Shown here piece by piece: positions 17,201 through 31,819 of a DNA stretch of 64,000 nt (position 1 is the stretch's first letter; each line of letters opens with the position of its first letter). The position numbers and the translations under genes were made by a program. Origin of the DNA: Candidatus Magasanikiibacteriota bacterium (GTDB taxonomy: Bacteria; Patescibacteriota; Patescibacteriia; Magasanikbacterales; GWA2-37-8); NCBI GenBank assembly GCA_963802255.1, contig CAWDHY010000001.1, positions 235,842 through 299,841 on the forward strand. The letters are read 5' to 3'. Below the pieces are notes generated by a model, which ran no database searches, was not told the origin of the DNA, and saw nothing but the letters and a program-made list of their open reading frames with translations.

Positions 17201-17257
17201 TGCTTCAAGCGAAGCAAATGGCAAAGTAAATCTTGGCGGTTTACTTGTGGGTATTGA
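11261..17257 (+). CDS. Giant Cys-rich secreted/cell-surface protein (N-terminal part, 1998 aa)
   Basis: Signal peptide (FGLAAILASFVFAFVFGLALFSPKPAQA). Very high Cys content in CxxC/CxnC patterns throughout. No enzymatic motifs. The 3' end overlaps the next ORF, which is in the +1 frame. Confidence 0.6.
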   Translation: MITKTKKFGLAAILASFVFAFVFGLALFSPKPAQAQLVTSNPDVMGWLTGQTVKDTQKSFLEKVKTEGLLMVASMLMNGLNYFLNKIAYDMAVYLAAGDFGQGPFASSENFGNYLAQTAGDALGEALYTLSEDLGLDLCNLPDLRLDLMLKLGFHFNYGPPTPRCTWQQLKSAYNVENIRSKYASQEGLASRLGMGVQVEDSDFGVWFSGKEKIDTYAAEQTTGAQLDREEGSGIFAASEIISHKQTIPATVMREEFNAQSASAQKEGRQATAMTGMASALEKGGTSLALNTVSTFVNTLLGTVLNNFITKGLLPGGKKVCNPGLSISGVGWDQCEDDDSAESMAASYYSSGSAGTSNRRAAQEMFSEYLKPKIQTMENYDISPNMAECSEDNLLPESCIVDQSFLQILQQANTGEPFTIKQAMERGLLHADWKLIPDEDAANNQKFDCSQSAYCHRNIRYLRLARVLPLGFEIAANISSKDNPPTLKEVVEGYYDPTSNYYRLVNPHWVIKLPKMRCKSYVYSAIVSNGARLQTCADIQHCVGFNKDGSCQAWGYCLREKPIWKFKADYCDSQYNTCRAFTGSDGDTVGYLTRTLDTENCNSENDGCSHYANTKHYFSATSTDWYLPRISTSSGSFFNTSISFNKKATLCGASNDGCSAYQVAAKPETVVYLKKAPDYLFCYDADSTLESNNYEQTFARLANGISWPQTVADLSLLRPADAEKCKEYAQVCLPEEENCNLYTSALTREIIPGKFQPAVISGGLVTWNDQCDAKCVGYAAYQEVPSNYSNGNPLAYIIPSSGNSCGSSDAGCSAFTNLSTDTGGLEQTEYFSYLRLCILPDANKQKNFYVYESSEKSGYQLKTYTFEKDNLGGPKQIYHDPEEMDLYTGDSGLCDEESYLAGTADPDCHQFNDDQGDSYYAMLSKTVIVSDTCTPYRLNSPELVTGFSPTDLRCPYDFEPTDTDNRAGDTVELKENSCYYMGFTGNTNGAGDARSCTKEADSCRGYKGNAGNNVRSLVSDNFENTIEDWAGDSITHIATSSESTQLGGHSLKVSATTNGIADSSAHRSFDSVQKGKSYFLTFWAKGNLPIDRITIRGGAGEQEFVNSISVSDVWRYYSYGPLEYNGESGDGVLSFYVGNGGGTEKSFFLDNVSLKEVTDYIYLVKNSLSVDPICDSNPADNLPGEALGCMAYTDPAKNTYNLTNFSYLCREDAVGCTALLDTGNTPNDPLARAYNVWVKGSSGSLASVSVEGTSYSCQVPVGKDGCYTNILDINSLGNLYALQGSEITLTNSTVIVPPDTPSSSPIYLVASKNVTCKAENMGCQVLGKGKYTPSGNTFSVATGEVTHYEVFEEVAVKNDPALYDTSLCKSEENGCKSWKSGDSVYYFKDPMQNGKMVCKYISPAASTFHMEAMTIVTPDFQVVSFPEMDINYSLGGWAWKDVGICSGAAKWCMNDSECGEGNTCLYKNKIPCSPGFFSVADGWGLWSYGNKDKYRGFVGECPVEQSGCTEFVDHSSSGDEKRCAMSGQKCESNSDCTEESTDDICVVNTSNAYYLIDNNNLSEQKSVCNGQVSQAEGCVLLDNTNQPTKMYDTEATYQASIDAKDALINPLSSGDSNDANTIIKVTHDRICGEWAYCDLKQEFEDEETGEATSRCYHLGVCEKAGAVDNIAGKVVKECAVTVLDWPTKDLVLTKWQYQNTQENWDSLNYSGYSTYNTYQVPDLSARKVSSTYRLVYVDSEFSFKGSGTPSSERCLNPTDPAYEDGQECSTEEYAECYNGECLVAYNNSGAEYSRSLQCRAYPEMTSPFPYHVLTDPSNDVLEFKDSFDGVNLCKTNNGNYTSLCETECGYRKIKTDGGEVFEPISRPMEGSYVCATGPQTGEFCSGPESTECGDGEICSKIKSFQILNGWMGYCLERDATYRINGTNTQNCMTWWPIESPPGVPNLWDTDPKAGYEIADGPQDRFMCIENEPIFNRDSILCFKRSKWQSKSWRFTCGY

Positions 17258-19637
17258 CACGGCGATACATGACTCCTCACAAACTTGCTTGAATGATTAC
17301 TCTGTTCAAACAATGCCAAAAAATAATTCTTATAAGATAATAAATCAGTCTGACTTGGGCATGGGTGATAATTCAAAATTCGCTTTTACAAATTTACCAT
17401 CTAATGTTGCGGTTTCCGGTTGTTATACAGCTGATAACGAAGGAGAATATGTATGGGGGATGGCCGCGAAATATTCAGCAGCCATGTATTGTCCGATAAA
17501 TCGTGATACTCTTATTTTGGATGGTGATAAAGGTGCGGGGCCATCGTCATGGGTAGGCGAAACAATGGCTTTATGCACATCAATTCAGGGAACGGGAACT
17601 GATGGAATGCGTTACGATGATGAACAGGAACGCTGGGAATGCGATGGCTGGAATCCTTGGCAGGATAATTACTTCACCGGTGGGCCTTACCATTGGAACA
17701 ATGCGAAATGGGCGGAAGGTTATGGATCGAAATTTTTTAACCGTAATGAGATTGAAAGAATAGATGTTTTTATTGATGAAATGAATAGCAAGGTGCGCAG
17801 TAATGGGTGGGTTAGTTTTATCCGCGATGCAGTAAATGCTGATGAAGGTGACGGAGATCGTTCATTTGTTGCGGAGCAATCGTGGGTTTATCCTGATGGC
17901 GATTCCAGTATCCATACTATTTCATTAGATGATCAAGGTAAATATGGCTGGACAGCATGGCAATATTATGGCGGCTCTGGGGCGGCTGGTTGGACTATTT
18001 CCGATGGCACAAATGACAAGGGCAGAATAATATCGCAAGGGCTGGATACCGACACCTACCATTTTGAAGATGTGGAATCAACAGCGGCAAATACCAAAAA
18101 TATTGGCATTCGTGTTGTTTGGGATGAAAGTAATAATTTACGGGGAATTTGGCTTAATTTGGAAGGAACCGATGGCGATGCTGATTATATAGGAGATGGT
18201 GACTGCGAACCTGGTTTGGACATGGGCACTGCCTTTATCATTCATTTCACTCACGGTAAGTGCAAGAAGTTTGCGCAAATATCTAATTCCGCCTCTTCAA
18301 CCGGTATTGATTTTAAACCCTATCCTAATTATTTGAATAACAATGAGGTTTCGTTATATGAATCTGACGCCTCCCGTTATCCGGGCAAAACCACGTGGGA
18401 TAATGAATTATATTACGCAAGACGAACTGATGATTTGAACGGAGGTAAATATGGCTTGGCTTTTAGTACGGAAGACGGATATGTTGATATTAGAAATAAA
18501 ACGGCGGCTTTTATTAATCCATTCACATATTACAAAAAAATTGTGCACGATAGGGAGTTTTTTCACACCCAATCAGGTGATATAAATGCAAATTATGAGT
18601 TTACCGGATATAATGCTGGTGTAGCTTTAGTTTCGGCTGATTCGCGAACAGCTAAAAGCAATAACCCCGATTTTTACGACTATACTTTTTCAGATATACC
18701 CAATTCAACTCCGTACGGTAAAATGTTAACGAAAATGTTTGCCAGAGCCGGTAGTTTTTGGGAGCTGGTTTATGATGGCGGATATAATAATGGATATTCA
18801 TCATATTATGGCAGTGTTGACGCCTCAAAACCGAGAACTTCGACGGGCCCGGTTGACCAAATGAATCGTTTTCCACCCCGTGTGGCGGCACCGTCGGGTG
18901 ATACATGGGAATTGGATAAAATATCTGTAAATGGACAAACTGAGGGGAATATTTATCTCTACTCCGGCTCGCAAACACACATAAAGTTTTATGCCTGGGC
19001 TCATGGTAATCAGATGCCGATTCGTCAAATAGTGGTAGATAAAGGCGATGCTCCGGATACGCGTATTGATTCCGGTATGGTAAGTTCCATTGGAAATCGC
19101 AAACCGGTTTGTGCTGATAAAGCGTGCGGGACAACTGCTGAACTTACTCAATATCCATGTTCCGACAGCAGTGATTGCGATGCAGGGGAAGTTGATTTAG
19201 GTACTTGTTCAATTTTAACCCATGAATATCAAAAATTTGGCAATACTGATGATACCGGGTGTAAAGCCAAGCCGTGGGATTTTGTCACTGATTATAATTG
19301 CCCTTATGGAACAATGGACATTGTGGACAATGGCGAACAAATTAGTGGCTCAAATATTGATTGGAATAAAATACGAACGGAATTTTACAATGCCCCGTAT
19401 GTCTGTCTTGCCCGTCCGCAAATATTTGTAATGGATAATTGGGGTTGGTGTGCAAGCCGTGATCCTGATGACGGCGGATGTAATTATGAAAGTAATGCTA
19501 GTGTAAAAGGATACGGCTGTTACTATGAGGCTGGAAGTAGTGGAATTATAATCAGTGTGATTATAACGATAAAAGCGAACCATGGGTTAATTATGACGGC
19601 TATGTGGTTGTGGTTCCGTTGCCCGGAAGTTAAATAA
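17070..19637 (+). CDS. Probable continuation of the giant surface protein after a +1 frameshift (855 aa), or a separate gene
   Basis: Overlaps the previous ORF by 187 nt in the +1 frame. No signal peptide or TM at its N-terminus. Same W/G/D/Y/N/C-rich composition. A terminator follows at 19676. Confidence 0.5.
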   Translation: MNLRLEYLICGILIRRRVMKLPTVRKTDLCVLKMSRYLIEIVSYASSEANGKVNLGGLLVGIDTAIHDSSQTCLNDYSVQTMPKNNSYKIINQSDLGMGDNSKFAFTNLPSNVAVSGCYTADNEGEYVWGMAAKYSAAMYCPINRDTLILDGDKGAGPSSWVGETMALCTSIQGTGTDGMRYDDEQERWECDGWNPWQDNYFTGGPYHWNNAKWAEGYGSKFFNRNEIERIDVFIDEMNSKVRSNGWVSFIRDAVNADEGDGDRSFVAEQSWVYPDGDSSIHTISLDDQGKYGWTAWQYYGGSGAAGWTISDGTNDKGRIISQGLDTDTYHFEDVESTAANTKNIGIRVVWDESNNLRGIWLNLEGTDGDADYIGDGDCEPGLDMGTAFIIHFTHGKCKKFAQISNSASSTGIDFKPYPNYLNNNEVSLYESDASRYPGKTTWDNELYYARRTDDLNGGKYGLAFSTEDGYVDIRNKTAAFINPFTYYKKIVHDREFFHTQSGDINANYEFTGYNAGVALVSADSRTAKSNNPDFYDYTFSDIPNSTPYGKMLTKMFARAGSFWELVYDGGYNNGYSSYYGSVDASKPRTSTGPVDQMNRFPPRVAAPSGDTWELDKISVNGQTEGNIYLYSGSQTHIKFYAWAHGNQMPIRQIVVDKGDAPDTRIDSGMVSSIGNRKPVCADKACGTTAELTQYPCSDSSDCDAGEVDLGTCSILTHEYQKFGNTDDTGCKAKPWDFVTDYNCPYGTMDIVDNGEQISGSNIDWNKIRTEFYNAPYVCLARPQIFVMDNWGWCASRDPDDGGCNYESNASVKGYGCYYEAGSSGIIISVIITIKANHGLIMTAMWLWFRCPEVK

Positions 19638-19763: not shown

Positions 19764-20375
19764 TCAAATGGGCCGAGGCAGGATGTTTTTGCGGTGAGGT
19801 TTGTGGACTAGGAACTGATTAGCGTTCGTAATCGTTTTCATCGTTTGCAGATTAGCACCCCAGAAATTCACGTGAAGCACGGCGGTTGAAACGGTATCGT
19901 TCCGATAGATCTTTACATGCTGATCATCTTCAGCGTTGTATGTCTCAAGCGGGAGCTCGGTGCCGAACAAAGCGTAATAAAAAGTTGCGGCGCCGGTCGA
20001 TTCCACCTTGCATTCGTCGCCGGAGACGGTTAGGATGATGGTGAGGAGGTGATCGGGAATATGCGAGTAGTTCACGATGTACCAATCGCCCTCGATGTCG
20101 TAGCATCCGTTGTCGGGGTCTTCGGTCTTCAGGCAATCGCAGGCCGTGGGGTCGTCGGTCTCGGTGTCGGTATCCGTATCGGTGTCCGAATCCGTGTCAG
20201 AATCGGTATCCGTATCGGTGTCCGAATCCGTGTCGGAATCGGTGTCGCCGTCGGCATCCCCATCCACGCAGTCGCCGTTCTCGTCCTCCACACAGTCGTC
20301 GCCCTCGTCGCAAGCGGTGACGAACGCGGCCATCATGACGATGGCCATGAGCGCGAAAATGTTTCTCATCGTCAT
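19764..20375 (-). CDS. Putative lipoprotein with an acidic (D-T/D-S)n dipeptide repeat region; GC-rich compositional outlier
   Basis: Signal peptide with a lipobox-like AFVTAC. Residues ~36-75 are GDADGDTDSDTDSDTDTDTD... The DNA in the first half of the gene is visibly GC-rich compared with its neighbours. Confidence 0.5.
   Translation of the reverse strand: MTMRNIFALMAIVMMAAFVTACDEGDDCVEDENGDCVDGDADGDTDSDTDSDTDTDTDSDTDSDTDTDTDTETDDPTACDCLKTEDPDNGCYDIEGDWYIVNYSHIPDHLLTIILTVSGDECKVESTGAATFYYALFGTELPLETYNAEDDQHVKIYRNDTVSTAVLHVNFWGANLQTMKTITNANQFLVHKPHRKNILPRPI
20151..20270. repeat. Imperfect 6/12-nt tandem coding repeats (gtcggtatccgtatcggtgtccgaatccgtgtc...) encoding the (DT/DS)n tract
   Basis: Directly visible periodicity. 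The antisense frame gives a spurious SVSVSESVS ORF. Confidence 0.6.
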
Positions 20376-20767
20376 GGCTGACTCTCCTTTTTCTTCCCCC
20401 GCTCGTCGGGGGATTTGCTGTGATGATTTTCGCCCCTTGCGGGGTCCTTCGGTTATAGCCCAGGAATTTGGATGTATTTACTTTTTCTTCCCCTTCTGAC
20501 ATTGGTCAGAAATATATGTTCTATGGGAATCAATTTAAGATTTTCTTTCGCTACAAGCGTGTCAAAATTACTCTGTCATTTTTCAATATATCCAAATTTC
20601 TGGGCTATTGCCCGGTAGAGACCGTAAGGCATTCTACTGGGCCATGTATTTATTTATCCTGCCTATTTTGGCTAGAAATAGCGTTTCCGCTAAATATAGC
20701 ACTTTTGTAAAGATCTATTGTTATTTTAGGCCATTTTCAGGCACTTAACAACATATATTAGCACAAA

Positions 20768-20797
20768 TTGACGGGTTTGTCAAGGGGGGTGTATAAT
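20768..20797 (+). promoter_or_regulatory. Sigma70-like promoter (TTGACG-18-TATAAT, TG immediately upstream of the -10)
   Basis: ttgacgggtttgtcaaggggggtgtataat lies 37 nt upstream of the 20834 ATG. Confidence 0.4.
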
Positions 20798-20833
20798 ACC
20801 CACACTTAAAAAAAATCATCAATTTTATACATT

Positions 20834-21133
20834 ATGTCCGGTCAAGAAACCACAATTAATGAGCTGATGGAGTTTTTGCAGGAGGAGATGTTTTCCAAAG
20901 CCGATGGTAAAATGTTAGAAAAAAGGCTTGATGGAAAAATCAGCCAAGTTCATCTTGAACTTTCCGGACAACTCCGAATGATTGAAATTGATATTAAAGA
21001 TATTAAAGAGCGCCTAACGCGTTTAGAAAAAAGAACCATTGAAGATGCGGACGCAACCGCGAAGGATGTTTTGGAATTACGCCGCCGGATTGAGGCGCTG
21101 GAAAATAAAGTTCGTGAATTACAGCCGGCATAA
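20834..21133 (+). CDS. Hypothetical coiled-coil protein (99 aa)
   Basis: Heptad-like charged sequence (LTRLEKRTIEDADATAKDVLELRRRIEALENKVRELQ). No recognisable domain. Confidence 0.45.
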   Translation: MSGQETTINELMEFLQEEMFSKADGKMLEKRLDGKISQVHLELSGQLRMIEIDIKDIKERLTRLEKRTIEDADATAKDVLELRRRIEALENKVRELQPA

Positions 21134-21221
21134 TGGGCGCATCCGCATATTTGAATAGAAAAAAGCGGCTGGAAGTGTTTCCAGCCGCTTTTAATGAACG
21201 GAGAGATGTTGGCCGGCAGCC

Positions 21222-21698
21222 CTATTTGATTGAGGCTCGTATCCGTGCCGCGATCTGTTCTAATGTGCGGTCATCGGCTCTAGGGCCGTCGGCTGAAGTA
21301 AGGAACCCGTCGTATATTTCATTGAATCGAGGTTGGTCCGACAGAATGGGGCGCCAGCGCTTCATTTTTGTCCCATGCATCGGATAGAGCTTCGCGTGTG
21401 CGTGGTCAATTCCGAACCCCTCCACAATCATACCTGTTCTGCCAACATCACGGAAGTACTTGTTAAGGTGGGCGGTCACGATGCGGGATGCCTCCATCAG
21501 CCCCGCGTAAATTGGCCCGGGCAGGCTGAAGACATCGCTCGGGTAGTGTTTTTTCGTGATGACGATGGTTGCACCGGGAGTATTGGGGTAAATGGACAAA
21601 AAAGCCAGGTGGTTATCATCTTCCCATATCTTGTGGCATGGTTCAGCGCCGACTATAATGGCACAGAATATGCAATTCTGTTGATGAATTTTTTTCAT
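21222..21698 (-). CDS. HIT (histidine triad) superfamily nucleotide hydrolase, Hint-like, with a variant triad HAHAK
   Basis: N-terminal CIFCAII...EDDNHLAFLSIYPNTPGATIVITKKHYP matches the Hint consensus (IFxKII...ED...AFxDIxP...LVIPKKH). The triad region is GIDHAHAKLYP. The gene looks GC-richer than its neighbours by eye. Confidence 0.6.
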   Translation of the reverse strand: MKKIHQQNCIFCAIIVGAEPCHKIWEDDNHLAFLSIYPNTPGATIVITKKHYPSDVFSLPGPIYAGLMEASRIVTAHLNKYFRDVGRTGMIVEGFGIDHAHAKLYPMHGTKMKRWRPILSDQPRFNEIYDGFLTSADGPRADDRTLEQIAARIRASIK

Positions 21699-21870
21699 CG
21701 TATTCTCCTTTCCTGATTAAAAGAGCCACTCTCCGTTTTATCAATAAATTTATAAATTGTCAAGACTGGAGATAGTGTGCTTGACAAGCAATGCTGAACG
21801 CCCTAAACTATCATGTTAATAGGTACTATAAGTAATATGGCATTTTTTATCATATTAAAGCTCATATAGA

Positions 21871-22995
21871 GTGAATATGTTACCTGAATATTTGCTTAAT
21901 ATAATCCGGCAGGATGATGACAAATTTTTTGGACATGAGCGTTCCGACTATGCAATTCCGATGTACTCTCCGGAGAGGCATTATTTGGATTTAACCAGAA
22001 GCAAATATTATCACGCGCTTCTTATAATGCGGAATGCCGTTTCAGCTTTATGCGACCATTATTTTGGAATCGAATTCGGTGCGAAAAAAGTTGATCTTTT
22101 TATGATCACGCCGAGCATCTCTTCACCAATGGGCCCCGGATCGAATTCAGCGGCAGTTCCAATAAAATTCGGTCAGTTTGACTCATTTTTAGTTGATTCG
22201 GCGCAGTTCGGGTTTGAACCGTTGTTGTTAAATAATTTTTCAAAAGTTTACTGCTATTTGCCATCAATGCGCGGCGAAGACCACGATCGAAGGCATCTTA
22301 ATCAATTTTTTCATTGCGAGGCAGAAATAAAAGGAACTCTTCAGGATGTTTATCCGATTGTGGAAAATCTCGTAAGAAATCTTTGCCAGACTCTCTCGAG
22401 CATGCCGAATATTATTAATTTAATCAGCGCGAGTCCGGAAGACACGGCATTGCATCTTCAACAGACGGCAGAAGTCCTATCTTTCCCGAAGATTAGTTTT
22501 GATGAAGCTGTGGATGTATTAGTGAAAAATGGCATGCGAGATTGTGTCATATTTACCGATACTGGTCGCGATATTACAGCTAAAGGTGAAAATGAACTTG
22601 CTAAGCATTTGAATTCTAATACACCTTTTTGGTTAACCGGTTTTGACCGTGATCGGGTTCCTTTTTATCAGAAGCCTCATAGTAATAGTCCAGATAAAGT
22701 TATAAATGCTGACTTACTATTTCCCCAGATTACTCCTGAATCTTTTGGTGGAGAAGTTGTCGGGTGCGGTGAGCGACAAGATTGCGCGGAGGAGATGAGG
22801 AGGTCATTACAGCGCCAGGGAATATCCGCCGAACCTTATGACTGGTATATTAATCTTAGGAATCAGCCAGGATATCAAACGACCTCCGGATTTGGCCTTG
22901 GCATTGAACGGTTTCTTACATGGGCGCTTTGCAGACCTGATATCAAGGATGTAATTATTTACCCTCGTTTAAAAAATGTCCGAACTTATCCTTAA
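21871..22995 (+). CDS. Class II aminoacyl-tRNA-synthetase catalytic-core paralog lacking an anticodon-binding domain (AsnA / Asp-Asn-RS-like ligase)
   Basis: 374 aa. Class II motif-2-like MRGEDHDRRHLNQFFHCEAE. Motif-3-like TSGFGLGIERFLTWAL. No N-terminal OB fold. Confidence 0.5.
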   Translation: MNMLPEYLLNIIRQDDDKFFGHERSDYAIPMYSPERHYLDLTRSKYYHALLIMRNAVSALCDHYFGIEFGAKKVDLFMITPSISSPMGPGSNSAAVPIKFGQFDSFLVDSAQFGFEPLLLNNFSKVYCYLPSMRGEDHDRRHLNQFFHCEAEIKGTLQDVYPIVENLVRNLCQTLSSMPNIINLISASPEDTALHLQQTAEVLSFPKISFDEAVDVLVKNGMRDCVIFTDTGRDITAKGENELAKHLNSNTPFWLTGFDRDRVPFYQKPHSNSPDKVINADLLFPQITPESFGGEVVGCGERQDCAEEMRRSLQRQGISAEPYDWYINLRNQPGYQTTSGFGLGIERFLTWALCRPDIKDVIIYPRLKNVRTYP

Positions 22996-23845
22996 TTATA
23001 TGGATTATTACAGCGACGTAAAAGAATATTTTAATGAAAAAGCACGCGAATATGACGATGTTGATAAACAGTTATATTGGGTTTTATCTGACCAGTATTT
23101 CAAAAAAATTTTAAGGAATGAACTGGATGATTTTTTTTCCAATTTTGAAAATGCACGCATTCTTGACGCTGGTGCCGGGACTGGCCGCTGGACCTTAATT
23201 TTAGATGAACTATTCGGGGCAAAAATCGGTAGCGGAGTTTTGGTGGATATTTCTTCAAAAATGCTTGATGAGGCAAAAAAGAAAATTGAAAAAAGCAATT
23301 TGTCGTCCAAGTACTCATGCCAAGAGGGTAATATTGAGAGTTTGGATTTTATAGAAAACGGTTCAATTGATCTGGCAATTTCTTTTTATAACGTCATTAG
23401 TTTTGTGGAACATCCTGAAAAGGCGCTGAGGGAAATAAGCGAGAAATTGCGGACCGGGGGCATCCATATTAGTATAGTGGCGAATAAGTATCACGCATAC
23501 TATTTTTCCATTTTGACTAATAGGTTAAATGAGCTGGATAATATATTTCACAAGTCGCTGATACGATTTAACGACGCTATGCCGGCAATTCATTGTTATA
23601 CGCCCGAAGAAATCAGGCAGCTATATGCTCAAAACGGTTTTGCCGATATCCGTGTTTTCGGCGGGCCAAATTTTATCTATCCGGGCATGGAAGAAACGAA
23701 AGTACTCGGGAATACTGAGCAAATTGCGAATAAATTAAGCGATCGGTCGATTTTTGACAAGATACTGTCAATTGAAATGGAAAATTACAGCAATCCGAAT
23801 ATTGTCGGTCGCGGAAATGTTTTACTAGTAATCGCAAAAAAATAA
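22976..23845 (+). CDS. Class I SAM-dependent methyltransferase
   Basis: Motif I ILDAGAGTGRWT, and an acidic post-I residue (VLVDIS). 289 aa. Alternative start at the ATG at 23000. Confidence 0.6.
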   Translation: MSELILNYMDYYSDVKEYFNEKAREYDDVDKQLYWVLSDQYFKKILRNELDDFFSNFENARILDAGAGTGRWTLILDELFGAKIGSGVLVDISSKMLDEAKKKIEKSNLSSKYSCQEGNIESLDFIENGSIDLAISFYNVISFVEHPEKALREISEKLRTGGIHISIVANKYHAYYFSILTNRLNELDNIFHKSLIRFNDAMPAIHCYTPEEIRQLYAQNGFADIRVFGGPNFIYPGMEETKVLGNTEQIANKLSDRSIFDKILSIEMENYSNPNIVGRGNVLLVIAKK

Positions 23846-23846
23846 T

Positions 23847-24833
23847 ATGTATGAAATCAGACCCGGTGACACTATAGGAATTGTTTCTCCTTCAGCGCCG
23901 ATTGCCGGTTATTGTCCGAAACGCTTGGACAGGGGAGCGAAACTGTTGGAACATATGGGCTATAAGGTTAAACTGGGGAAAAATGTTTCACAAATAAGTG
24001 ATTATACTGCCGGTTCCGCTTCCGACAGGGTTTCAGATATTCATAGCATGTTTGAAGACGTTGAAATTATGGCTGTTATCGCTACGGTTGGCGGTTTTAA
24101 TGCCAACGACTTGCTTGACAAATTGGATTATAAATTTATTGCCGATCATAAAAAGATTTTTATTGGTTATAGTGATATCACAGTATTATTGTCAGCACTA
24201 TCAAAATTATCGGGTATTAAGGCAATTATGGGGCCGATGATTTTGCCGCAATTCGGCGAATTTCCTGGCATGCTGGAATTTACAAAGGATTCATTCCAGA
24301 AAGTTACGCAGGGAATTGGAAGCGGAGAAAAATATGTTTTGCCTCAATCGGATCAATGGACTGAAGAGATGCTGTTGTGGGACAAAGAGGACAATCGGCC
24401 GAGAAATATGGCTGCGAATGAAGGATGGAAAGTAGTCAGCGGGGGGATGTCCAGAGGCAGATTGGTTGCCGGTAATTTAAATTCCCTGGTCAAACTTATA
24501 GGAACTCCTTATATCTATGATTTTCAAGACGCGATTCTTTTTTTGGAAGACGACGACAGTGAGTCGCCGGCTACAGTACGGCGCATGCTTATGCAAATGA
24601 AACAAGCAAACTTATTGGTGGGAGTTAAGGGCTTTGTGTTCGGCAGGTTTCAAAAAAAGAGCAATATCGCGGAACAAGACATAAGAAATATTTTTGAAGT
24701 TCTTTATGAAAAAGTTGAAATACCGGTAATAATGAATGCGGATTTTGGGCATACGGACCCCATGTTATGTTTGCCAATTGGAAACGAGGTCGTAATTGAT
24801 ACGGAAAAATCCGGGATAACAGTTATTTTATAA
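23847..24833 (+). CDS. LD-carboxypeptidase / microcin C7 immunity MccF-family serine peptidase (peptidase S66)
   Basis: N-terminal GDTIGIVSPSAP. Nucleophile motif IFIGYSDITVL. Acidic FLEDDDSE and late DFGHT consistent with an S66 Ser-Glu-His triad. 328 aa. Confidence 0.7.
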   Translation: MYEIRPGDTIGIVSPSAPIAGYCPKRLDRGAKLLEHMGYKVKLGKNVSQISDYTAGSASDRVSDIHSMFEDVEIMAVIATVGGFNANDLLDKLDYKFIADHKKIFIGYSDITVLLSALSKLSGIKAIMGPMILPQFGEFPGMLEFTKDSFQKVTQGIGSGEKYVLPQSDQWTEEMLLWDKEDNRPRNMAANEGWKVVSGGMSRGRLVAGNLNSLVKLIGTPYIYDFQDAILFLEDDDSESPATVRRMLMQMKQANLLVGVKGFVFGRFQKKSNIAEQDIRNIFEVLYEKVEIPVIMNADFGHTDPMLCLPIGNEVVIDTEKSGITVIL

Positions 24834-24886
24834 GAAAAGTTCTTTACAATCAAAATTGACGCCACAGAAGAGATAGGAGGTTGATA

Positions 24887-26203
24887 ATGAAAATGGGCGA
24901 TTTGCTTCGCTTTGCTCCGGAGGGTACAGAGTTCTCCGGTCGGGTTCGCTTGCTGAGTAAACGGAGATTCGGCAAGATCTGTTTTTGTGGGGTGCGGTTT
25001 CATGAAGACCAGGTCCAGATCATGATGAACGCGGAATTGGTGAATTTTCACGAGATTTCTCGCTTGCCGCTCGGAAGCCTCATCGTGGTTCGCGGTGTTA
25101 AAACTCTCACAAAGATCGGTGAACCAACCCTTCGCGTCACTGAAGCGGTAGTGGAATTTGTGTTCGACGGAACGATGCCGGACAAGTTTCATGGTTTGTC
25201 GTCAGGGCACCGGTATCGCGATCGGGTCCAAGATCTGATGGTAAATCCGGATTCTTTTTTCTTCGCGCGCAAGATGACAGCCGCGCTTATGGCAATGCGA
25301 CAGTATCTTTATAAGCAAGGATTCCGTGAATTCATCACCGGAGTTCTTCAGGAGCAGTTTGAAGGCGGACAGGCAAACGCATTTTCAACCTTGTGCCGTG
25401 CGAACGGACATTTGCTGTATTTGAGTCTGACGAGCGAACTCAAATTGAAACGCCTGATCGTGTCCGGTTTCGAGCGCGTGTTCGAAATTGCCCAGTCATT
25501 CCGTAATGAGGGGATAGACGCCATTCACTCGCCGGAGTTTACTCTCCTTGAGATGTACGCCGCCGACCATGACTGTCACGAAATGATGATTCTCTTGGAG
25601 CGGATGGTTTGCGAAGTGGTTGCCGCTTGTGAAGGATCGCCTGAAATTTTGTTCGCGGTGGATGACAATTATAATCACATAGTATCATACCAGCCGCCGT
25701 TCAAGCGGTTGACGTTCAGGCAGGCGTTCGAAACATTTGTCGGTGGTTGGAATGAGTGTGATATCGGCCATCTTTCCCAATGCATGCCAGATTTGTTCAG
25801 TCGGTCAATGACGAGATTCACTTGGCTTATGAAGGTCATCGAAAAGATATTAGCTCCCAAGTTGATAGAACCCACTTTCCTCACGGAGCTTCCGATTGGG
25901 ATGTCTCCCTTCGTAAAAAATCACGAAAGAGGCGAAACAAGTGACAGGGCTTTCTTCATAGCACAAGGCGTGTTTCTCGCCGATATCTACACCGACGAAA
26001 ACAGAATCGGGAAGGTTGAAGAAGCATTGCGTGTTCAGGCGTCGGAGACAAACAACCCGCTCAATGAGGAATACCTTGACGCTTTGAGGCTTGGTATGCC
26101 CCCAACGGCGGGTATCGGGCTGGGCTTGAATCGGTTGCTGATGCTCATGTTACACGATCTCCCACAAAACATTAAGGAAACCATGTTGTATCCGATATTG
26201 TGA
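24887..26203 (+). CDS. Lysyl-tRNA synthetase-like class IIb aaRS (short, GC-rich)
   Basis: N-terminal OB fold. GHRYRDRVQDLMVN (LysRS RYRQRYLDL-like). Motif 1 FREFITGVLQ. Motif 2 FRNEGIDAIHSPEFTLLEMY. Motif 3 PPTAGIGLGLNRLLMLM. GGAGG RBS lies 6 nt before the ATG at 24887. Visibly higher GC than the flanking genes. Confidence 0.7.
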   Translation: MKMGDLLRFAPEGTEFSGRVRLLSKRRFGKICFCGVRFHEDQVQIMMNAELVNFHEISRLPLGSLIVVRGVKTLTKIGEPTLRVTEAVVEFVFDGTMPDKFHGLSSGHRYRDRVQDLMVNPDSFFFARKMTAALMAMRQYLYKQGFREFITGVLQEQFEGGQANAFSTLCRANGHLLYLSLTSELKLKRLIVSGFERVFEIAQSFRNEGIDAIHSPEFTLLEMYAADHDCHEMMILLERMVCEVVAACEGSPEILFAVDDNYNHIVSYQPPFKRLTFRQAFETFVGGWNECDIGHLSQCMPDLFSRSMTRFTWLMKVIEKILAPKLIEPTFLTELPIGMSPFVKNHERGETSDRAFFIAQGVFLADIYTDENRIGKVEEALRVQASETNNPLNEEYLDALRLGMPPTAGIGLGLNRLLMLMLHDLPQNIKETMLYPIL

Positions 26204-26282
26204 ATGGGAATTGTCACCAAAATTGTATGTGTCAAATAATAAGTCTAGCGATTTTTTTCAGCTTTTTTTGGATGTTCCTCCC

Positions 26283-26316
26283 GGCGCACTAATCACGATT
26301 AGTGCGCCGTTTTTTT
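26283..26316 (+). terminator. Rho-independent terminator (ggcgcactaatcacgattagtgcgcc + T8)
   Basis: Perfect 9-bp stem and T-run directly after the LysRS-like gene. Confidence 0.75.
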
Positions 26317-26412: not shown

Positions 26413-29235
26413 ATGTTTAATTCCCTTCGTATAAAGGGAAAAATTCTTTGGGATGTCATAAAACCGCGCAACCGGCTGGGTTTATTGTCGGCTGTTTTTG
26501 TAGTGTCCGCATTGCTTGTACTCATTTTTGTTGTTGGTCCTCAGGCATACGCCTCATCAATTGGCGATGATATCGCCAGTATGATCGGGGAGTTGTTTTT
26601 ATGGATTGCGACAAAACTATTATCCCTTACTGTTTTCTTATTAAAATTTGTAATAGAAATTGCGAGCTACAACAATTACATCAATTCCGGAGCAGTCACG
26701 CTTGGCTGGATTTTAGTGCGCGATGTGACGAATATGTTTTTCGTCATCATTTTGATGGTCATCGCTTTTGGTACTGTGCTCGGCATTGAACAATATGAAT
26801 GGAAAAAATTATTGGTTAAATTTGTAATGGCGGCTATACTTGTAAATTTTTCCCGCGTTATTTGCGGAGTGATAATTGACGCGGCTCAAGTTTTTATGAT
26901 GACTTTTATTTCCGGCGTGGCTGCAGTTGCCGGCGGAAATCTTATCAACGCTTTAAAATTGGAGAGTATTTTGTCATACAGCAAGAACACTTCAGCCGAG
27001 GCTATGAAGCATATGAATGTTGTGGTCACTTCCATGTTCGCTTGTGTTTTCGCTTTTGCCACAGTGGTAGTTATGGGCGCGTATCTGGTGGTACTGATCG
27101 GACGCGCCATTACACTATGGGTGCTGATTATTTTATCGCCATTGTCCTTTGTGTTAAGTGTCATTCCAAAAACTCAGCAATATGCTTCGCAGTGGTGGAG
27201 TGAATTTAGCAACAACGTAATTGTCGGTCCGGTGCTTGCATTTTTTCTTTGGCTGGCGTTTGCCGTGGCCGGTGGGTCGGATGTTCATCAGGAGTTCTCA
27301 AGTGGTTCGGCATATCCGATGACAGACCCGGCGTCAGAGCAGGCGGCGATAGAGGCCATGGGTGCGCAGTCAGCCACAGAATCATCAGGTACAAATTTGA
27401 GCGCGGTGATGGAGTGGGATAATATGGCCAGTTTTATCATTGCCGTTGGCCTGCTTTTAGCCGGCGTCAAAACCGCGCAAAAACTTGGCACTGCCGGAGC
27501 CGGAGCGCTTGGTGCGGCCGGCGGAGCAGTCACTGGATTTGCTATGGCCGCGACCGGTGTGACCGCGGCCAGATGGGCGGCCAGAACGGGTGTGGGCGCG
27601 GCAAAAAGAGGGGCGATGAAAGCCGGAAAATTTGTTGCTATGAAAGCGCCGGTGGTTGGTGGTGATGCGTGGAAGAGGAGGGGGAGATCGATAAAGGCGG
27701 GTGTAGCGGAAAAATATCAGGATGTGATGAGGGGATATGAAGGAGCGACGAATAAATTGCGGAAAGGAAAGGGCTGGCGTCGTGCCTTGGGTTCTGTAGC
27801 GCCTTTAACGAGTTTTCAAAAAGAAAAAGATGTTCAGTTTAGAGAATCCATGGCAAAGGTAGCCAAAGAAGAGCGTGAAGAGTTGCATGGTAGGGGTGGA
27901 ACAGAACTCGGTAAAAGAGCCGGCAGAAGAAAGAAACACTTGGAACATGTGATTGAAGAAGAGGACTTTAATAAAAAAGCCGGTCTTATGCTTGCTGAAG
28001 CCGATGCATATAAGCGTGTCGGTAAAAATGAAATGGCGCAGAAAATATATAATGACCGGGATGCGATGATTTATGACAGAAAAATGAAACAGGATGTCGC
28101 CCACATGGACTATCCGCAATTAATGGGTGCGGCAGAAGCCGGCGCTCAAGCAACGGCGGATATAAAGAAAAAAATTGTAGAAGAGTATGGCAAAGGTGAT
28201 AAAGCTGATAAAAGTAAAATAGACGGCTATAGTGAAAAATTAAATGAGCAGCAATTACATAATACGCGACTTTTGGCACACGCAAGAGGAATGGGCGGCG
28301 CGACTGCTACGGATGTTAACAAAATGCTTTCTTCCTTTTCAGGCCAAGATGACACCGACCATAGCGCGGCAGCCGAGGCATCGCGGGTTTATGGTCTTGA
28401 CGCGAATAAGGAAAATGAGAAAAAAATATTAGAAGATTTAGTAAAAAAGTTTGGAAATAGCGGGCAGAATCAGGCGGCGATGAGCGCATTAGCAAAAGCA
28501 AATGCCGCTCTGATTAAGACCGATGCAACAAAAATTGGCGCAGCCGCTTCAATTAGCGAGGGAGTTGTAATTGATGAAAGGACAGGAGTAAGAAATGTTG
28601 TGCGAGGTTTCGGGAGGGGTGTTGGTGATTTTGATATAAAAGGAAAAAATCGAAAAGAAGAATATGAAAGATTGGATGAAAAAGAGAATCTCGCATTGCT
28701 GAGTGGGGATATTGAAAAAGCCGAGAAATTAGGAATAGAAAAAAAGGAACATGAATCAAATTCTTTTGAGACCAGTGAAGCAAAGGCCAAATATTTTAGT
28801 GAGGTTGCCGCAGTATCGTATCGGGAATCTACCGATGCTAACAGTATTGTTAGTTCGGCAAAAAGGGACTCGCAAGGAAATATCACTGATGTCGTAAAGT
28901 TTGATGACCGTCAGTTGGAGTCAATGAGCCGTTACCTTGGCGCCACGCCAGCCACTCAGATGAAGAAGGCTTTTCCACCGAGCATGATTGAGGCATTAAA
29001 TAAAATGGCGATGAGTGGAGAAAATGCCGCCTTTTTACTTAAAAGGTTGTCATCAAAAATGACCGATGATAATCAAATAAAGGCGCTCACGTCATTACTT
29101 GGGGGAATTGCCGGTAAAAGACCGGCGCAAGAAGCACAAACAACACCAGGAGGAAAAGCCCAGGCGGCGCGTGCGGCGACAGAAGAGAGTGATGAAATCG
29201 AAGCAGAAGAAGATGCAAAGTTTAACAAAAAATAA
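26413..29235 (+). CDS. VirB6/TrbL-like polytopic membrane protein with a long charged/coiled C-terminal extension (T4SS-like component)
   Basis: 940 aa. Multiple N-terminal TM helices over the first ~270 aa, then a Gly/Ala-rich segment, then a K/E/A-rich tail. The architecture matches VirB6/TrbL-type proteins. A VirB4 homolog lies downstream. Confidence 0.45.
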   Translation: MFNSLRIKGKILWDVIKPRNRLGLLSAVFVVSALLVLIFVVGPQAYASSIGDDIASMIGELFLWIATKLLSLTVFLLKFVIEIASYNNYINSGAVTLGWILVRDVTNMFFVIILMVIAFGTVLGIEQYEWKKLLVKFVMAAILVNFSRVICGVIIDAAQVFMMTFISGVAAVAGGNLINALKLESILSYSKNTSAEAMKHMNVVVTSMFACVFAFATVVVMGAYLVVLIGRAITLWVLIILSPLSFVLSVIPKTQQYASQWWSEFSNNVIVGPVLAFFLWLAFAVAGGSDVHQEFSSGSAYPMTDPASEQAAIEAMGAQSATESSGTNLSAVMEWDNMASFIIAVGLLLAGVKTAQKLGTAGAGALGAAGGAVTGFAMAATGVTAARWAARTGVGAAKRGAMKAGKFVAMKAPVVGGDAWKRRGRSIKAGVAEKYQDVMRGYEGATNKLRKGKGWRRALGSVAPLTSFQKEKDVQFRESMAKVAKEEREELHGRGGTELGKRAGRRKKHLEHVIEEEDFNKKAGLMLAEADAYKRVGKNEMAQKIYNDRDAMIYDRKMKQDVAHMDYPQLMGAAEAGAQATADIKKKIVEEYGKGDKADKSKIDGYSEKLNEQQLHNTRLLAHARGMGGATATDVNKMLSSFSGQDDTDHSAAAEASRVYGLDANKENEKKILEDLVKKFGNSGQNQAAMSALAKANAALIKTDATKIGAAASISEGVVIDERTGVRNVVRGFGRGVGDFDIKGKNRKEEYERLDEKENLALLSGDIEKAEKLGIEKKEHESNSFETSEAKAKYFSEVAAVSYRESTDANSIVSSAKRDSQGNITDVVKFDDRQLESMSRYLGATPATQMKKAFPPSMIEALNKMAMSGENAAFLLKRLSSKMTDDNQIKALTSLLGGIAGKRPAQEAQTTPGGKAQAARAATEESDEIEAEEDAKFNKK

Positions 29236-29268
29236 GATGCAAGTGATATATTTTCCATTTTAACGAAT

Positions 29269-30372
29269 ATGCGGAACTATAATCCACAGCAAAACAGTCA
29301 AACAAATTTTGCAGAATTGCAAAAAGATTTTTTTGAAACCGATATATTGGCGCCGGATGCTTTTGCGCCTATCAAAAAAGATTTGATTGATTATTTTAAT
29401 TCCGCCGACGCATCCGCTAAGAAAAATAGCAGGCAATTTTGGTTGTTGAACGTATATGCTACCTGGAAGTTCATTAATCAGCTTTCTCCGACTGAAGTAA
29501 TTGATTTTATGGTGGAACAAATTCCTGATGCCATACGGCTGGGATTTGATGTGACTGATAAATTGATCTGGTATATGGGGTTGAATGTTAATGATTTGGA
29601 AAATAGGATGATTTTTTATTCCGAGATAAGAACAAAAATTCTGACAGGAGATTTCTTTATTGACTCAGCCGGAAAAGAAATGACAATGAAAGATCTTTTC
29701 CAACAGATTCGCCTGCTTGACAGTTATGCGAATGACGCCATGCGGGCAGCTGAATTATATGAAAAGATTCAGCGAACATTATTCGCCGGTACGGAGAATG
29801 ATTCAATATATGAGTATTTAATAATTGACCACAGAGAGGCGGTAGAAAAAATGGTTGATTTGGTTAGCTTTATCAATACAGTAGAACCGGATAAGATTTG
29901 GGAAACGGTAGAAGGCGCCATATTTATTGAAACCACACAAACATCGCCGGATGAAGTGCCTGTACCGGTGGTGGAAAAACCGGAAATAATCAGACCGACA
30001 CCCGAATTGGAAATGAAAGCAAAGGCGCTTGCGGCTGCTGATATGAAACCGGGTTCAACTGAAAAACCTGTAAATTTGGCGACGGAGCCGGCAAAGCAAG
30101 CGGAACCTAAAAAATCTTTTCAACCGCCAAAATCTGTCCAGCCACCAAAGCCGGCAGAACCGGTACAACCAGTTACGCCAGTTAAGCCGTCCTATGCAGA
30201 AATTCGCAGAAAAATTGAAGCTGTGTTTCCGAAAGACGCGCAGGGTGAGTATACAAATTTAGACAGTTTACTTGCCGCTCTGCAGAGCGCAGCTGAGAAA
30301 TACAACGATCCGAAAATTTCCGAACTGATGTATTTTGACGAATCTGACAATAAATTTAAATGGAGCATATAA
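29269..30372 (+). CDS. Hypothetical protein with a C-terminal Pro/Lys-rich linker (T4SS-like cluster)
   Basis: 367 aa. PEPxKP repeats (KSFQPPKSVQPPKPAEPVQPVTPVKPS). No known domain. Confidence 0.4.
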   Translation: MRNYNPQQNSQTNFAELQKDFFETDILAPDAFAPIKKDLIDYFNSADASAKKNSRQFWLLNVYATWKFINQLSPTEVIDFMVEQIPDAIRLGFDVTDKLIWYMGLNVNDLENRMIFYSEIRTKILTGDFFIDSAGKEMTMKDLFQQIRLLDSYANDAMRAAELYEKIQRTLFAGTENDSIYEYLIIDHREAVEKMVDLVSFINTVEPDKIWETVEGAIFIETTQTSPDEVPVPVVEKPEIIRPTPELEMKAKALAAADMKPGSTEKPVNLATEPAKQAEPKKSFQPPKSVQPPKPAEPVQPVTPVKPSYAEIRRKIEAVFPKDAQGEYTNLDSLLAALQSAAEKYNDPKISELMYFDESDNKFKWSI

Positions 30373-30373
30373 T

Positions 30374-31357: not shown

Positions 31358-31363
31358 CGTCCT

Positions 31364-31795
31364 ATGCAAACACAATTTGTTGTGCCACAATTTATAGATG
31401 TTGAAGATAAGATTTTTGGTCCGGTTACGGCCAGGCAATTTGTGATATTACTTACCGCCGGCTTAACGTTATTTGTCGCTTTCAAACTTGCTGATTTCGC
31501 ATTATTCATTTTTTTAGCCGCGGTAATCGGTGGAGGAGCCCTGATTATCGCTTTTGTGAAAATTAACGGCCAGGCCTTTCATTATTTTTTGCTAAATATT
31601 ATTCAGACATTGAGGCGGCCTGCCTTGCGGATTTGGAATAAAGTTTATGAGACGAGTGAAATTAAGCGCATGCTTGCCGAGGGAATAGTGACAATACCGG
31701 AAGCGGCCAAACCGATTCCTCGGCTCTCATATAGCCGCATCCGCGATTTATCGCTGACAGTGAATACAGGCGGTTATTATCAGGCGGAAGATTAG
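31364..31795 (+). CDS. Small two-TM membrane protein, VirB3/PrgI-like candidate
   Basis: 143 aa with two hydrophobic helices (FVILLTAGLTLFVAFKLADFALFIFLAAVIGGGALIIAFV). Lies immediately upstream of the VirB4-like genes, as in Gram-positive-type T4SS. Confidence 0.35.
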   Translation: MQTQFVVPQFIDVEDKIFGPVTARQFVILLTAGLTLFVAFKLADFALFIFLAAVIGGGALIIAFVKINGQAFHYFLLNIIQTLRRPALRIWNKVYETSEIKRMLAEGIVTIPEAAKPIPRLSYSRIRDLSLTVNTGGYYQAED

Positions 31796-31819
31796 AAAAA
31801 ATATTAAAAAAGGTTGAGT

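Follow-up and report, generated by a model that had tools for sequence, protein, structure and literature searches.

A conserved, mobile cassette of tRNA synthetase paralogs and MccF-type hydrolases in Patescibacteria and its possible link to microcin C-like aminoacyl-nucleotides

We analyzed a 64,000-nucleotide stretch of a Candidatus Magasanikiibacteriota bacterium genome (contig CAWDHY010000001.1, positions 235,842 to 299,841; called the window throughout), in which four genes on the plus strand (21877-26203) and one divergent gene form a cassette built around paralogs of aminoacyl-tRNA synthetases (aaRSs). The four genes encode, in order, a class II catalytic core derived from asparaginyl-tRNA synthetase (AsnRS), here called ASNcore (21877..22995; 372 amino acids, aa); a class I S-adenosylmethionine (SAM)-dependent methyltransferase-fold protein (22976..23845; 289 aa); an MccF-type S66 serine hydrolase (23847..24833; 328 aa); and a paralog of lysyl-tRNA synthetase (LysRS) (24887..26203; 438 aa). 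The divergent gene (21222..21698, minus strand) encodes a 158-aa HIT hydrolase of the MccH-clade type. The cassette is conserved and horizontally mobile. Read from its sequences, there is in our estimate an even chance that it handles a microcin C (McC)-like aminoacyl-adenylate mimic, without MccA or MccB and with hydrolases of its own. A putatively Asn-specific adenylating enzyme occurs here together with MccF-type hydrolases, in some loci with proteins of the MccH, MccD, and MccG types or resembling the N-terminal domain of MccE (MccE-N), and in none with MccA, MccB, or MccC; the simplest reading of this combination is an alternative, non-ribosomal route.

The genes were identified by listing open reading frames (ORFs) in six frames and scanning the window proteins against Pfam and NCBIfam. 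The HIT protein matched Pfam HIT at 26 bits, ASNcore matched PF00152 at 111 bits, the methyltransferase matched Methyltransf_25/11/31 and UbiE-like models, the S66 protein matched Peptidase_S66 and S66C, and the LysRS-like protein combined an oligonucleotide-binding (OB) domain with a class II core. The ORFs of ASNcore and the LysRS-like gene start at 21871 and 24881; database gene models begin two codons later, which gives the lengths of 372 and 438 aa used here. The first-pass annotation of this DNA, made from the sequence alone, had placed five such genes essentially where these scans find them. It had also proposed a compact mcc-related module that lacks MccB. That idea is supported by co-conservation, by the MccF and MccH hallmarks, and by the absence of MccB, but three of its details did not survive.

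Conservation and mobility of the cassette

Carriers of ASNcore were sought in one genome per GTDB species; 103 were found, and 80 loci were fetched. The ORFs of the loci (referred to below by L numbers) were classified with phmmer seeds, and gene association was counted over 82 non-redundant ASNcore loci. An S66 gene lies within 6 kb of ASNcore in 76 of the 82, the exceptions being mostly short contigs, and this association is far beyond chance. Such co-conservation among related genomes was one of the checks on which the first-pass annotation had let its module stand or fall. A methyltransferase-fold gene is present in most of the 82 loci. The related loci come mostly from the ultra-small Patescibacteria, or Candidate Phyla Radiation (CPR) bacteria. 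ASNcore itself has 854 database homologs, and the best 120 of these 854 all have lengths of 369-386 aa and identities of 56% or more.

Gene order is conserved along with gene content. The exact layout of the window, with the HIT gene divergent from ASNcore-methyltransferase-S66-LysRS-like, is repeated in L005 and L006; the order of the four operon genes is repeated in L007, with variants in L028, L089 (Desulfonauticus), and L093. A second layout, [HD]-methyltransferase-365-aa protein-S66-ASNcore, occurs in CPR genomes and on a plasmid of Calothrix parasitica. In Desulfonauticus submarinus, a NUDIX gene and a fragment of a transposase neighbor the cassette. A minimal block, S66-ASNcore-HAD phosphatase-methyltransferase, flanked by insertion sequences (ISs) and adjacent to nodU, is found on conjugative symbiosis plasmids of two Bradyrhizobium species, B. 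barranii and B. elkanii (including USDA 76). One syntenic slot, with a giant secreted protein on one side and a TrbL/VirB6-like membrane protein on the other, holds a cassette of the LysRS-like (Lys) type in the window and L005 and one of the AlaRS-like (Ala) type, described below, in L020; the presence of either type in the same slot points to cassette exchange.

Three further searches returned nothing specific. No relative of the cassette was found among IMG/VR viral contigs, so there is no sign of phage carriage; PADLOC defence models gave only a generic methyltransferase-level match (mad2) and no match to the other proteins; and literature searches found no description of this cassette. 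In B. barranii plasmid pBb323S2a (L098, 401796-420911), the block sits in the symbiosis region between IS1380, IS5, and IS3 elements, and a role in legume symbiosis or rhizosphere competition is a possibility. Two other cassettes are set within aaRS-rich islands: inside the Ala-type cassette of L004 (1252-6940) lie genes for a 585-aa protein resembling ThrRS, for an aminotransferase, and for an IS1595 transposase, and in L035 (9368-15817) ASNcore is followed by another S66 gene, an 815-aa class I aaRS, and additional aaRS genes of class IIb.

MccF- and MccH-type hydrolases and tailoring genes

As references we used the Escherichia coli Mcc proteins encoded by the mcc operon of plasmid pRPEC180_47. 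The window S66 protein aligns along its entire length with E. coli MccF at 33% identity and matches solved MccF structures at E = 1e-50 to 4e-52 (about 175-181 bits), versus E = 2e-25 (93 bits) for LdcA; against the LdcA equivalog model it reaches 138 bits, with a cut-off of 378. Its Ser109, Glu234, and His302 align with MccF S118, E243, and H311, and among the cassette S66 proteins the Ser and His are kept in 70 of 70 and the Glu position is E or D in all 70. In MccF, W186 stacks the adenine, and the loop insertion with Trp186 separates MccF from LdcA (PMC8323819). Window residue Trp178 aligns with W186; of the 70 cassette proteins, 67 have Trp at this position and 3 have Tyr. Other pocket positions (183, 220, 246, and 247) vary by cassette type. 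On these sequence grounds the S66 protein is MccF-like rather than LdcA-like, in agreement with the first-pass annotation, which had set MccF against a peptidoglycan-recycling LdcA.

The MccH clade of HIT proteins is characterized by the motif ExxxxxHxHxKxx, in which the third His is replaced by Lys and a Glu is added; the Lys is essential, and the N-terminal catalytic His has been lost (PMC7157772). This published motif, which underlies the MccH-type assignment also made at first pass, is present in the window HIT protein as E93-x5-H99-x-H101-x-K103 (EGFGIDHAHAKLY), reading E93-GFGID-H99-A-H101-A-K103-LY. Each of its 120 best homologs has ExxxxxHxHxK, and HxHxH is absent from all of them. The window protein likewise lacks the N-terminal catalytic His: the position is Ala43 in it (Phe44 in MccH) and Phe in 100 of 112 scorable homologs. 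The window protein has a C-terminal extension. The same HIT gene adjoins the cassette in L005 and L006 and lies nearby in L007, L016, and L060.

When the E. coli Mcc proteins were used as phmmer queries (E <= 1e-3) on the full ORF sets of the window and 88 loci, a wider set of mcc-type genes emerged. The MccF query gave 86 matches, and MccB and MccC gave none. No conserved short ORF resembling an MccA precursor lies upstream of ASNcore in the window, L005, or L007, and the short ORFs there do not end in Asn. MccD homologs are found in 19 sister loci (E = 1e-14 to 3e-31; one full-length, at 26% identity, E = 2e-30), and L029, L036, and L085 share the order ASNcore-MccD-like-S66-pyridoxal phosphate (PLP) decarboxylase, the last of these 27% identical to the N-terminal domain of MccE (E = 6e-17). 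In L013 and L018, S51 peptidases adjoin ASNcore on its downstream side; these peptidases constitute the MccG family (PMC9239234).

Other recurrent neighbors are HD, NUDIX, and HAD phosphohydrolases, APH-like kinases, RpiB, an ATP-grasp ligase, RlmN/Cfr-like radical SAM enzymes, and ABC exporters. The methyltransferase of the window has only weak matches among solved structures (a UbiE-related methyltransferase, LahSB, and CmoM). It had been compared with MccD at first pass, a comparison that failed: the BLASTP alignment with E. coli MccD had E = 0.049, and phmmer found nothing. The methyltransferase of Ala-type cassettes is likewise not MccD-like. In Desulfonauticus (L089, 3428-4333), a shortened RlmN/Cfr-like radical SAM methyltransferase (RlmN 187 bits, cut-off 290) lies between the S66 and LysRS-like genes, and a radical SAM family matching only Pfam Radical_SAM lies near the cassette in three CPR loci (L026, L066, and L072). 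Such an enzyme could C-methylate adenine in a product or methylate rRNA or tRNA for self-resistance.

These enzymes bear directly on a reading in which nothing is synthesised and the cassette is only a detoxification or immunity island, its S66 and HIT proteins guarding epibiotic cells from the aminoacyl-nucleotide antibiotics of neighbors or hosts and its aaRS-like proteins acting as high-affinity decoys or scavengers for inhibitors or re-using the released amino acids. MccF-, MccH-, and MccG-type proteins are known immunity enzymes, and most of their homologs stand alone (PMC8323819, PMC7157772, PMC9239234). The window cassette has no exporter, and its LysRS-like protein, described below, has lost catalytic Mg2+ ligands yet keeps adenylate-binding residues, as a decoy would. 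However, sister cassettes contain tailoring enzymes (MccD-like, MccE-N-like decarboxylase, ATP-grasp, and kinases) that immunity alone would not need, the methyltransferase is nearly always present, and ASNcore, which is strongly constrained (50-60% identity across phyla), keeps all the catalytic residues of an adenylate-forming enzyme. We regard immunity alone as improbable.

Two kinds of synthetase paralog

The PF00152 match spans residues 35-367 of the 374-aa ASNcore ORF, and no OB domain is present. Motif 2 residues R132 and E134, the acidic pair D279/E293, R300, and motif 3 residue R345 are invariant across the family. We take the pocket motifs DSAQFGFE and HCEAE to be AsnRS-like (compare SAQLYLE and HLELE), without the lysine of AspRS QSPQLFKQ. 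The closest solved relatives are AsnRSs (best, P. horikoshii AsnRS, 1e-31), and an AlphaFold2 (AF2) model (mean predicted local distance difference test score, pLDDT, 79) superposes best on AsnRS-Asn-AMP structures (template modeling, TM, score 0.71). Identity to the window copy is 50-60% in all cassette types. Judged by these features, ASNcore is most likely a working enzyme that adenylates Asn with ATP and is unable to recognise a tRNA anticodon.

Two other assignments of ASNcore were rejected. As an AsnRS it lacks the N-terminal OB anticodon-binding domain and scores far under the cut-off of the asnS model (TIGR00457, 148 bits versus 343). As an archaeal-type AsnA it reaches at best 128 bits against NCBIfam AsnA (cut-off 389), and archaeal AsnA in PDB is matched only at E = 2e-6; over the AsnA and AsnS models together, its scores of 128-148 bits compare with curated cut-offs of 322-414. 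A class II core without an anticodon-binding domain, as the first-pass annotation had described it, is therefore upheld, but its likening to AsnA is not.

Relatives about 35% identical to ASNcore and annotated "asparagine synthetase A" occur on plasmids of Bacillus, Exiguobacterium, Xenorhabdus, and Pantoea agglomerans. In the Pantoea relative (L099, 7392-10215) a GNAT acetyltransferase is part of the same protein, and genes for an MFS transporter and a metallophosphoesterase come next; the locus may represent a further small-molecule pathway with an AsnRS-like core as its basis. L097, from another CPR genome, was considered as a Lys-type cassette and proved to be another cluster, without an S66 gene. 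It encodes (6001-12034) an MccH-type HIT protein, an Amidohydro_2 protein, an AspRS-type 437-aa and an AsnRS-type 463-aa protein, a methyltransferase, and an AspRS-like core of 269 aa in which the lysine of AspRS "QSPQAYKQ" is retained.

The relation of ASNcore to AsnA raises the alternative of a non-nucleotide conjugate, an X-Asn or beta-aspartyl dipeptide or amide, for which ASNcore would serve as an AsnA-like amide ligase and the S66 protein as an LD-carboxypeptidase-like trimmer or recycler. Anticodon-domain-free AsnRS paralogs are known to form amides (archaeal AsnA, weakly matched here), the plasmid-borne relatives on Bacillus, Xenorhabdus, and Pantoea plasmids are annotated as AsnA or fused to GNAT, and S51/PepE-type peptidases cleave Asp-X dipeptides. 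Against these points, the adenine-stacking Trp186 is kept in 67 of the 70 cassette S66 proteins, the HIT protein is of the MccH type, MccD-like transferases act on the phosphoramidate phosphate of McC, and the HD, NUDIX, HAD, and RpiB accessories suggest nucleotide or ribose chemistry. The balance leaves this alternative a low probability.

The second synthetase-like protein belongs to a separate family. Against NCBIfam lysS it scores 276 bits (cut-off 468). The family has 90 full-length members of 420-443 aa that are 33-72% identical, canonical LysRSs (about 500 aa) are at most 35% identical, and the most distant members examined are also located in a cassette. We aligned the family to E. coli LysU, whose numbering was reconstructed from a PDB alignment. 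Residues E240, R262, E264, H270, F274, E278, Y280, and R480 of LysU are kept in 86-90 of the 90 paralogs. LysU E414 is replaced by Phe in 72 of 90 and E421 by Phe in 57 of 90, neither position ever being Glu, while E428 is Asp in 89 of 90 and N424 is Asp in 75 of 90; in the window protein the residues at E414, E421, E428, and N424 are F356, F363, D370, and D366. All 21 canonical LysRS sequences compared (21/21) have E421 and E428. We take E414 and E421 to be Mg2+ ligands, E428 to be the ligand of the Lys epsilon-amine, and R72, F84, and Q95 of the OB domain to be readers of anticodon base U35; equivalents of these three OB residues are kept in 90 of 90 paralogs. The N-terminal helix of LysRS (about 45 aa) is missing, and an AF2 model (pLDDT 91) shows a full LysRS class IIb fold (TM 0.83-0.88). 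From the alignment, then, the family appears to have lost the Mg2+-ligand glutamates and to retain the contacts to the tRNA anticodon and to adenine.

A bona fide lysS (518-562 bits; cut-off 468) directly adjoins the paralog in L007, L028, and L091; no canonical lysS lies adjacent to it in this window. The separateness of the family, together with the true lysS alongside it, indicates that the paralog does not serve as the housekeeping enzyme and is not plausible as a resistant copy. Both identities were rejected on three grounds: the distinct family, the missed HMM (hidden Markov model) cut-off, and the loss of E414 and E421. The resistant target copy had been suggested by the first-pass annotation and is further at odds with the variability, described below, of the slot that the gene occupies. 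Assignment to EpmA/PoxA was also rejected, since the OB domain is present and TIGR00462 scores 123 bits against a cut-off of 287. No EF-P or EpmB gene lies near the operon in the window or in the neighborhoods of the relatives examined.

Retention of the anticodon-reading residues opens the question of macromolecule modification, in which the aaRS paralogs would aminoacylate a tRNA, a protein, or a cell-envelope precursor, the methyltransferase and an RlmN-like enzyme would modify the same target, and the S66 protein would act as an eraser. Precedents are EpmA on EF-P, GluQRS on tRNA-Asp, and LysX/MprF and the Fem ligases on lipids or the cell wall. The complete conservation (100%) of the anticodon-binding OB residues in the LysRS-like family fits such a role, as do the RlmN/Cfr-type radical SAM RNA methyltransferase of some cassettes (187 bits to RlmN) and the fact that S66 enzymes include LdcA, which acts on peptidoglycan peptides. 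It is countered by the other two protein families that occupy the same slot, the AlaRS-like and a third one, which have no tRNA-binding domain; by the MccF-like S66 protein with its nucleotide-stacking Trp; by MccD- and MccE-like genes and nucleotide hydrolases, which point to a small nucleotide substrate; by the lack of linked EF-P, EpmB, MprF, or Fem genes in the neighborhoods viewed; and by an EpmA model score under its cut-off (123 versus 287). We consider modification of a macromolecule unlikely.

The slot of the second ligase is variable. It holds the LysRS-like protein (about 438 aa) in the window and in L005-7, L023, L028, L072, L089, and L093; an AlaRS-derived core (about 365 aa) in 26 loci, the profile of which matches solved AlaRS N-terminal domains (E = 3.5e-7); and a third family (about 383 aa) in 25 loci, tentatively HisRS-like from its sequence profile (Pfam tRNA-synt_His 19 bits, E = 8e-4; PDB profile E = 0.44). 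Neither the AlaRS-like nor the third family has any tRNA-binding domain. In four of five Lys-type cassettes, the S66 protein is 42-70% and the methyltransferase 58-76% identical to that of the window; outside the Lys type, S66 identity is about 30-35%, and the methyltransferase is about 30% identical or has no alignable match. Because identity is high only among Lys-type cassettes, the S66 protein and the methyltransferase co-vary with the second ligase.

Every domain family found here has a housekeeping member, and in compact CPR genomes unrelated genes are often adjacent, so AsnA, LdcA, lysS, and Hint might merely be neighbors. This coincidence is essentially excluded: all curated equivalog cut-offs are missed widely, the genes are conserved together in different phyla and on plasmids, the S66 protein resembles MccF, and the LysRS-like family has no Mg2+-ligand glutamates and stands alongside a true lysS in L007, L028, and L091.

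Proposed pathway, genomic setting, and known systems

In McC biosynthesis, MccB acts only on a C-terminal Asn, by carboxylate adenylation, succinimide formation, and formation of an N-P bond with a second ATP (PMC8323819), and this chemistry strictly requires Asn (PMC8323819). MccD and MccE1 aminopropylate the McC phosphate (PMC8323819), and MccF, MccH, and MccG destroy the toxic aspartamide-adenylate (PMC8323819, PMC7157772, PMC9239234). A second precedent is AcmF of the ascamycin pathway, an AlaRS-like protein without ATP-activation residues that uses Ala-tRNA from the adjacent AlaRS AcmD to acylate an adenosine analogue, a step reversed by the hydrolase AcmE (PMC12945691).

In the pathway that we propose, ASNcore would activate free asparagine with ATP and yield an Asn- or Asp-linked adenosine nucleotide; the most attractive route would lead from the Asn-adenylate through a succinimide to an N-P bond, as MccB does on a C-terminal Asn. 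The LysRS-like protein would not charge tRNA. Its old active site would instead hold an adenosine-containing acceptor, as in AcmF, onto which it would transfer a lysyl group, probably from Lys-tRNA, to supply the variable aminoacyl part. It is the parallel between AcmF and a disabled, tRNA-competent LysRS paralog that leads us to propose the second ligase for this addition, and in sister cassettes this step would fall to the AlaRS-like or, tentatively, HisRS-like cores. The methyltransferase would tailor the product. The S66 protein (at the amide bond) and the HIT protein (at the P-N bond) would cleave the product or its toxic core, an activity that would serve self-protection or maturation, and the co-varying S66 protein would recognise the variable aminoacyl group. 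Candidate targets of the product are class II aaRSs such as AspRS, AsnRS, or LysRS. In an alternative sub-scheme, ASNcore and the S66 protein would generate adenosine 5'-phosphoramidate, which the second ligase would then acylate.

Stated in full, the proposal is that (i) an AsnRS-derived enzyme replaces the precursor peptide and MccB, making isoasparaginyl (aspartamide)-adenylate from free Asn and two ATP; (ii) disabled LysRS-, AlaRS-, or HisRS-like paralogs add a variable amino acid from aminoacyl-tRNA; and (iii) the outcome is a combinatorial family of non-ribosomal mimics with matched MccF- or MccH-type hydrolases, found mainly in CPR/Patescibacteria and occasionally on plasmids of Bradyrhizobium, Calothrix, and others. 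We offer this specific scheme tentatively and would not call it probable.

Several observations count against an McC-like product and this route to it. We know of no precedent for an AsnRS-like enzyme that forms an N-P bond, and AcmF-type transfer by a class IIb paralog is suggested by analogy. CPR bacteria are not, to our knowledge, known as antibiotic producers. The roles given above for E414/E421 and R72/F84/Q95 are assumed from class IIb synthetase structures, and a search for a citable source on the LysU Mg2+ ligands found none. The methyltransferase of the window is itself not MccD-like, and the window cassette has no exporter, ABC exporters lying within about 5 kb in only 8 loci. Few loci have the HIT gene within 6 kb of ASNcore. 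MccH-type HIT proteins form a very large family in CPR and DPANN genomes (2080 matches) and also adjoin ordinary class IIb aaRS genes, so the link between HIT gene and cassette may be a general link between HIT proteins and aaRSs. Finally, an MccH-like protein from Parcubacteria that was tested was apparently inactive on McC (PMC7157772).

If correct, the pathway would be the first route to a microcin C-type aminoacyl-nucleotide without a ribosomal peptide or a ThiF-like enzyme. It would assign new catalytic roles to three kinds of tRNA synthetase paralogs, one of them a class IIb analogue of the AcmF reaction. CPR bacteria are thought to be nearly devoid of secondary metabolism and to live attached to other cells, and the cassette would be among very few candidate specialised-metabolite pathways in them. 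The variable ligase and its matched hydrolase would make a toolkit for producing and resisting aaRS inhibitors. Cultured, tractable carriers exist (Bradyrhizobium elkanii USDA 76, the B. barranii symbiosis plasmids, and Calothrix parasitica NIES-267), which makes the idea directly testable.

Within the window, the four plus-strand genes overlap or lie no more than 48 bp apart, a spacing consistent with a single operon. A promoter-like site (21781..21809, plus strand; TTGACA-17-TAAACT, 10 of 12 matches, a consensus match only) lies 5' of the operon, and the TTGACA box is also found upstream in L005 and L007. The operon is closed by a terminator-like hairpin (26282..26309, plus strand; 12-bp stem with 7 GC pairs, then TTTTTTT) that stands 79 bp past the LysRS-like stop codon, and the HIT gene is closed by another (21161..21192, minus strand; 14-bp stem, 7 GC pairs, T-tract). 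Promoter and terminator counts across the region are not above shuffled expectation, so that only the placement of the sites is informative. As borders of its island, the first-pass annotation had cited terminators and a GC-rich lipoprotein gene. Terminator-like hairpins are indeed found at 19704-19674 (minus strand) and at the end of the operon, but the lipoprotein-like gene (19764-20375, minus strand; GC 0.547), which has D/T/S repeats with a long acidic (DTDS)n stretch, is no border: it recurs only in L005, the closest relative, and lies outside the conserved unit. So does a 99-aa coiled-coil ORF (20834-21133) that recurs in no compared locus.

Compositional deviance had been claimed for the LysRS-like gene. 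Its GC content is indeed raised (0.494, where the window averages 0.431; z = 2.3, within the top 3% of 1.3-kb windows), but the tetranucleotide signature of the whole cassette is ordinary (rank 41%). The HIT gene is also moderately GC-rich (0.507), and the methyltransferase gene is AT-rich (0.374). Recent horizontal transfer as read from composition was rejected, because only the LysRS-like and HIT genes are moderately GC-rich and tetranucleotides are not deviant.

Directly downstream of the operon is a type IV secretion-like block (26413-34379) with a 940-aa TrbL/VirB6-like (CD3337/EF1877-type) membrane protein, syntenic in L005 and L020, and a TraC/VirB4/TraG-like ATPase (31814-34379). Three giant proteins, Cys-rich or secreted, are encoded at 11261-19637 and 38572-44361; they measure 1998 aa, 855 aa (from an overlapping ORF), and 1929 aa, and the 1998-aa protein also lies upstream of the cassette in L005 and L020. 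A Sua5/YciO/YrdC domain (t6A synthesis family) and a DUF4015 putative glycosyl-hydrolase domain are, unusually, fused in one protein encoded at 7765-9492, after which comes KsgA (9507-10403). A 16S rRNA gene (58829-60477) identifies the window as bacterial; it spans 1649 nucleotides against a 1533-position model and probably contains an insertion. Past it (60682-61095) lie tRNA-Val(GAC), a weak 81-nucleotide tRNA-like match (60849-60929, 31 bits), and tRNA-Ile(GAT). No 23S gene occurs in the remaining 3 kb of the window, and the rRNA genes therefore appear unlinked.

Among known systems, archaeal AsnA and AsnRS share with ASNcore the class IIb fold, the intact motif 2 and 3 residues, and the acidic Mg2+ pair, and archaeal AsnA likewise has no anticodon-binding domain. 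ASNcore differs in belonging to a close-knit family of its own (372-aa proteins, 50-75% identity) and in its obligate linkage to an MccF-type hydrolase, which neither AsnA nor AsnRS has. Stand-alone MccF and MccH homologs (MccF of Bacillus anthracis; MccH of Salmonella and Pseudomonas) have the same hallmark residues as the cassette hydrolases and give resistance to peptidyl- or aminoacyl-adenylates outside mcc clusters. The hydrolases described here, in contrast, lie in an operon with adenylate-forming and methyl-transfer enzymes, and the S66 protein co-varies with its partner ligase.

In the ascamycin system (AcmD/AcmE/AcmF of Streptomyces sp. 80H647), a truncated aaRS paralog has lost ATP-activation residues and kept tRNA recognition, a residue pattern that the LysRS-like paralog fits. 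There, as in L007, L028, and L091, the paralog lies beside a full-length synthetase of the same type, and there is a hydrolase able to undo the aminoacylation; the ascamycin product is an aminoacyl-adenylate mimic (PMC12945691). However, AcmF is a class IIc protein that acts on 5'-O-sulfamoyl adenosine, whereas no sulfamate-biosynthesis genes are present here and the LysRS-like paralog has no sequence relationship to the AlaRS-like AcmF. The hydrolase here is of the S66/MccF type, whereas AcmE is an alpha/beta hydrolase; the AsnRS-like core has no counterpart in the ascamycin system; and this window has no adjacent canonical lysS.

The closest comparison is with mcc clusters. The window S66 protein has the MccF triad and adenine-stacking Trp, the HIT protein has the ExxxxxHxHxK of the MccH clade, and sister cassettes carry full-length MccD homologs, an MccE-N-like PLP decarboxylase, and S51 (MccG-family) peptidases. 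The AsnRS-type pocket implies Asn-specific chemistry, as McC synthesis needs Asn, and in several hosts the cassette is plasmid-borne or IS-flanked. Unlike mcc clusters, the 88 loci contain no ThiF-type MccB or MccC exporter, no conserved small ORF for an MccA peptide lies upstream of ASNcore in the window, L005, or L007, and the window methyltransferase is unrelated to MccD. In place of the missing genes are an AsnRS-derived adenylating core and a second, variable aaRS paralog, and an McC-like product, if there is one, would have free amino acids or aminoacyl-tRNA as its source rather than a ribosomal peptide.

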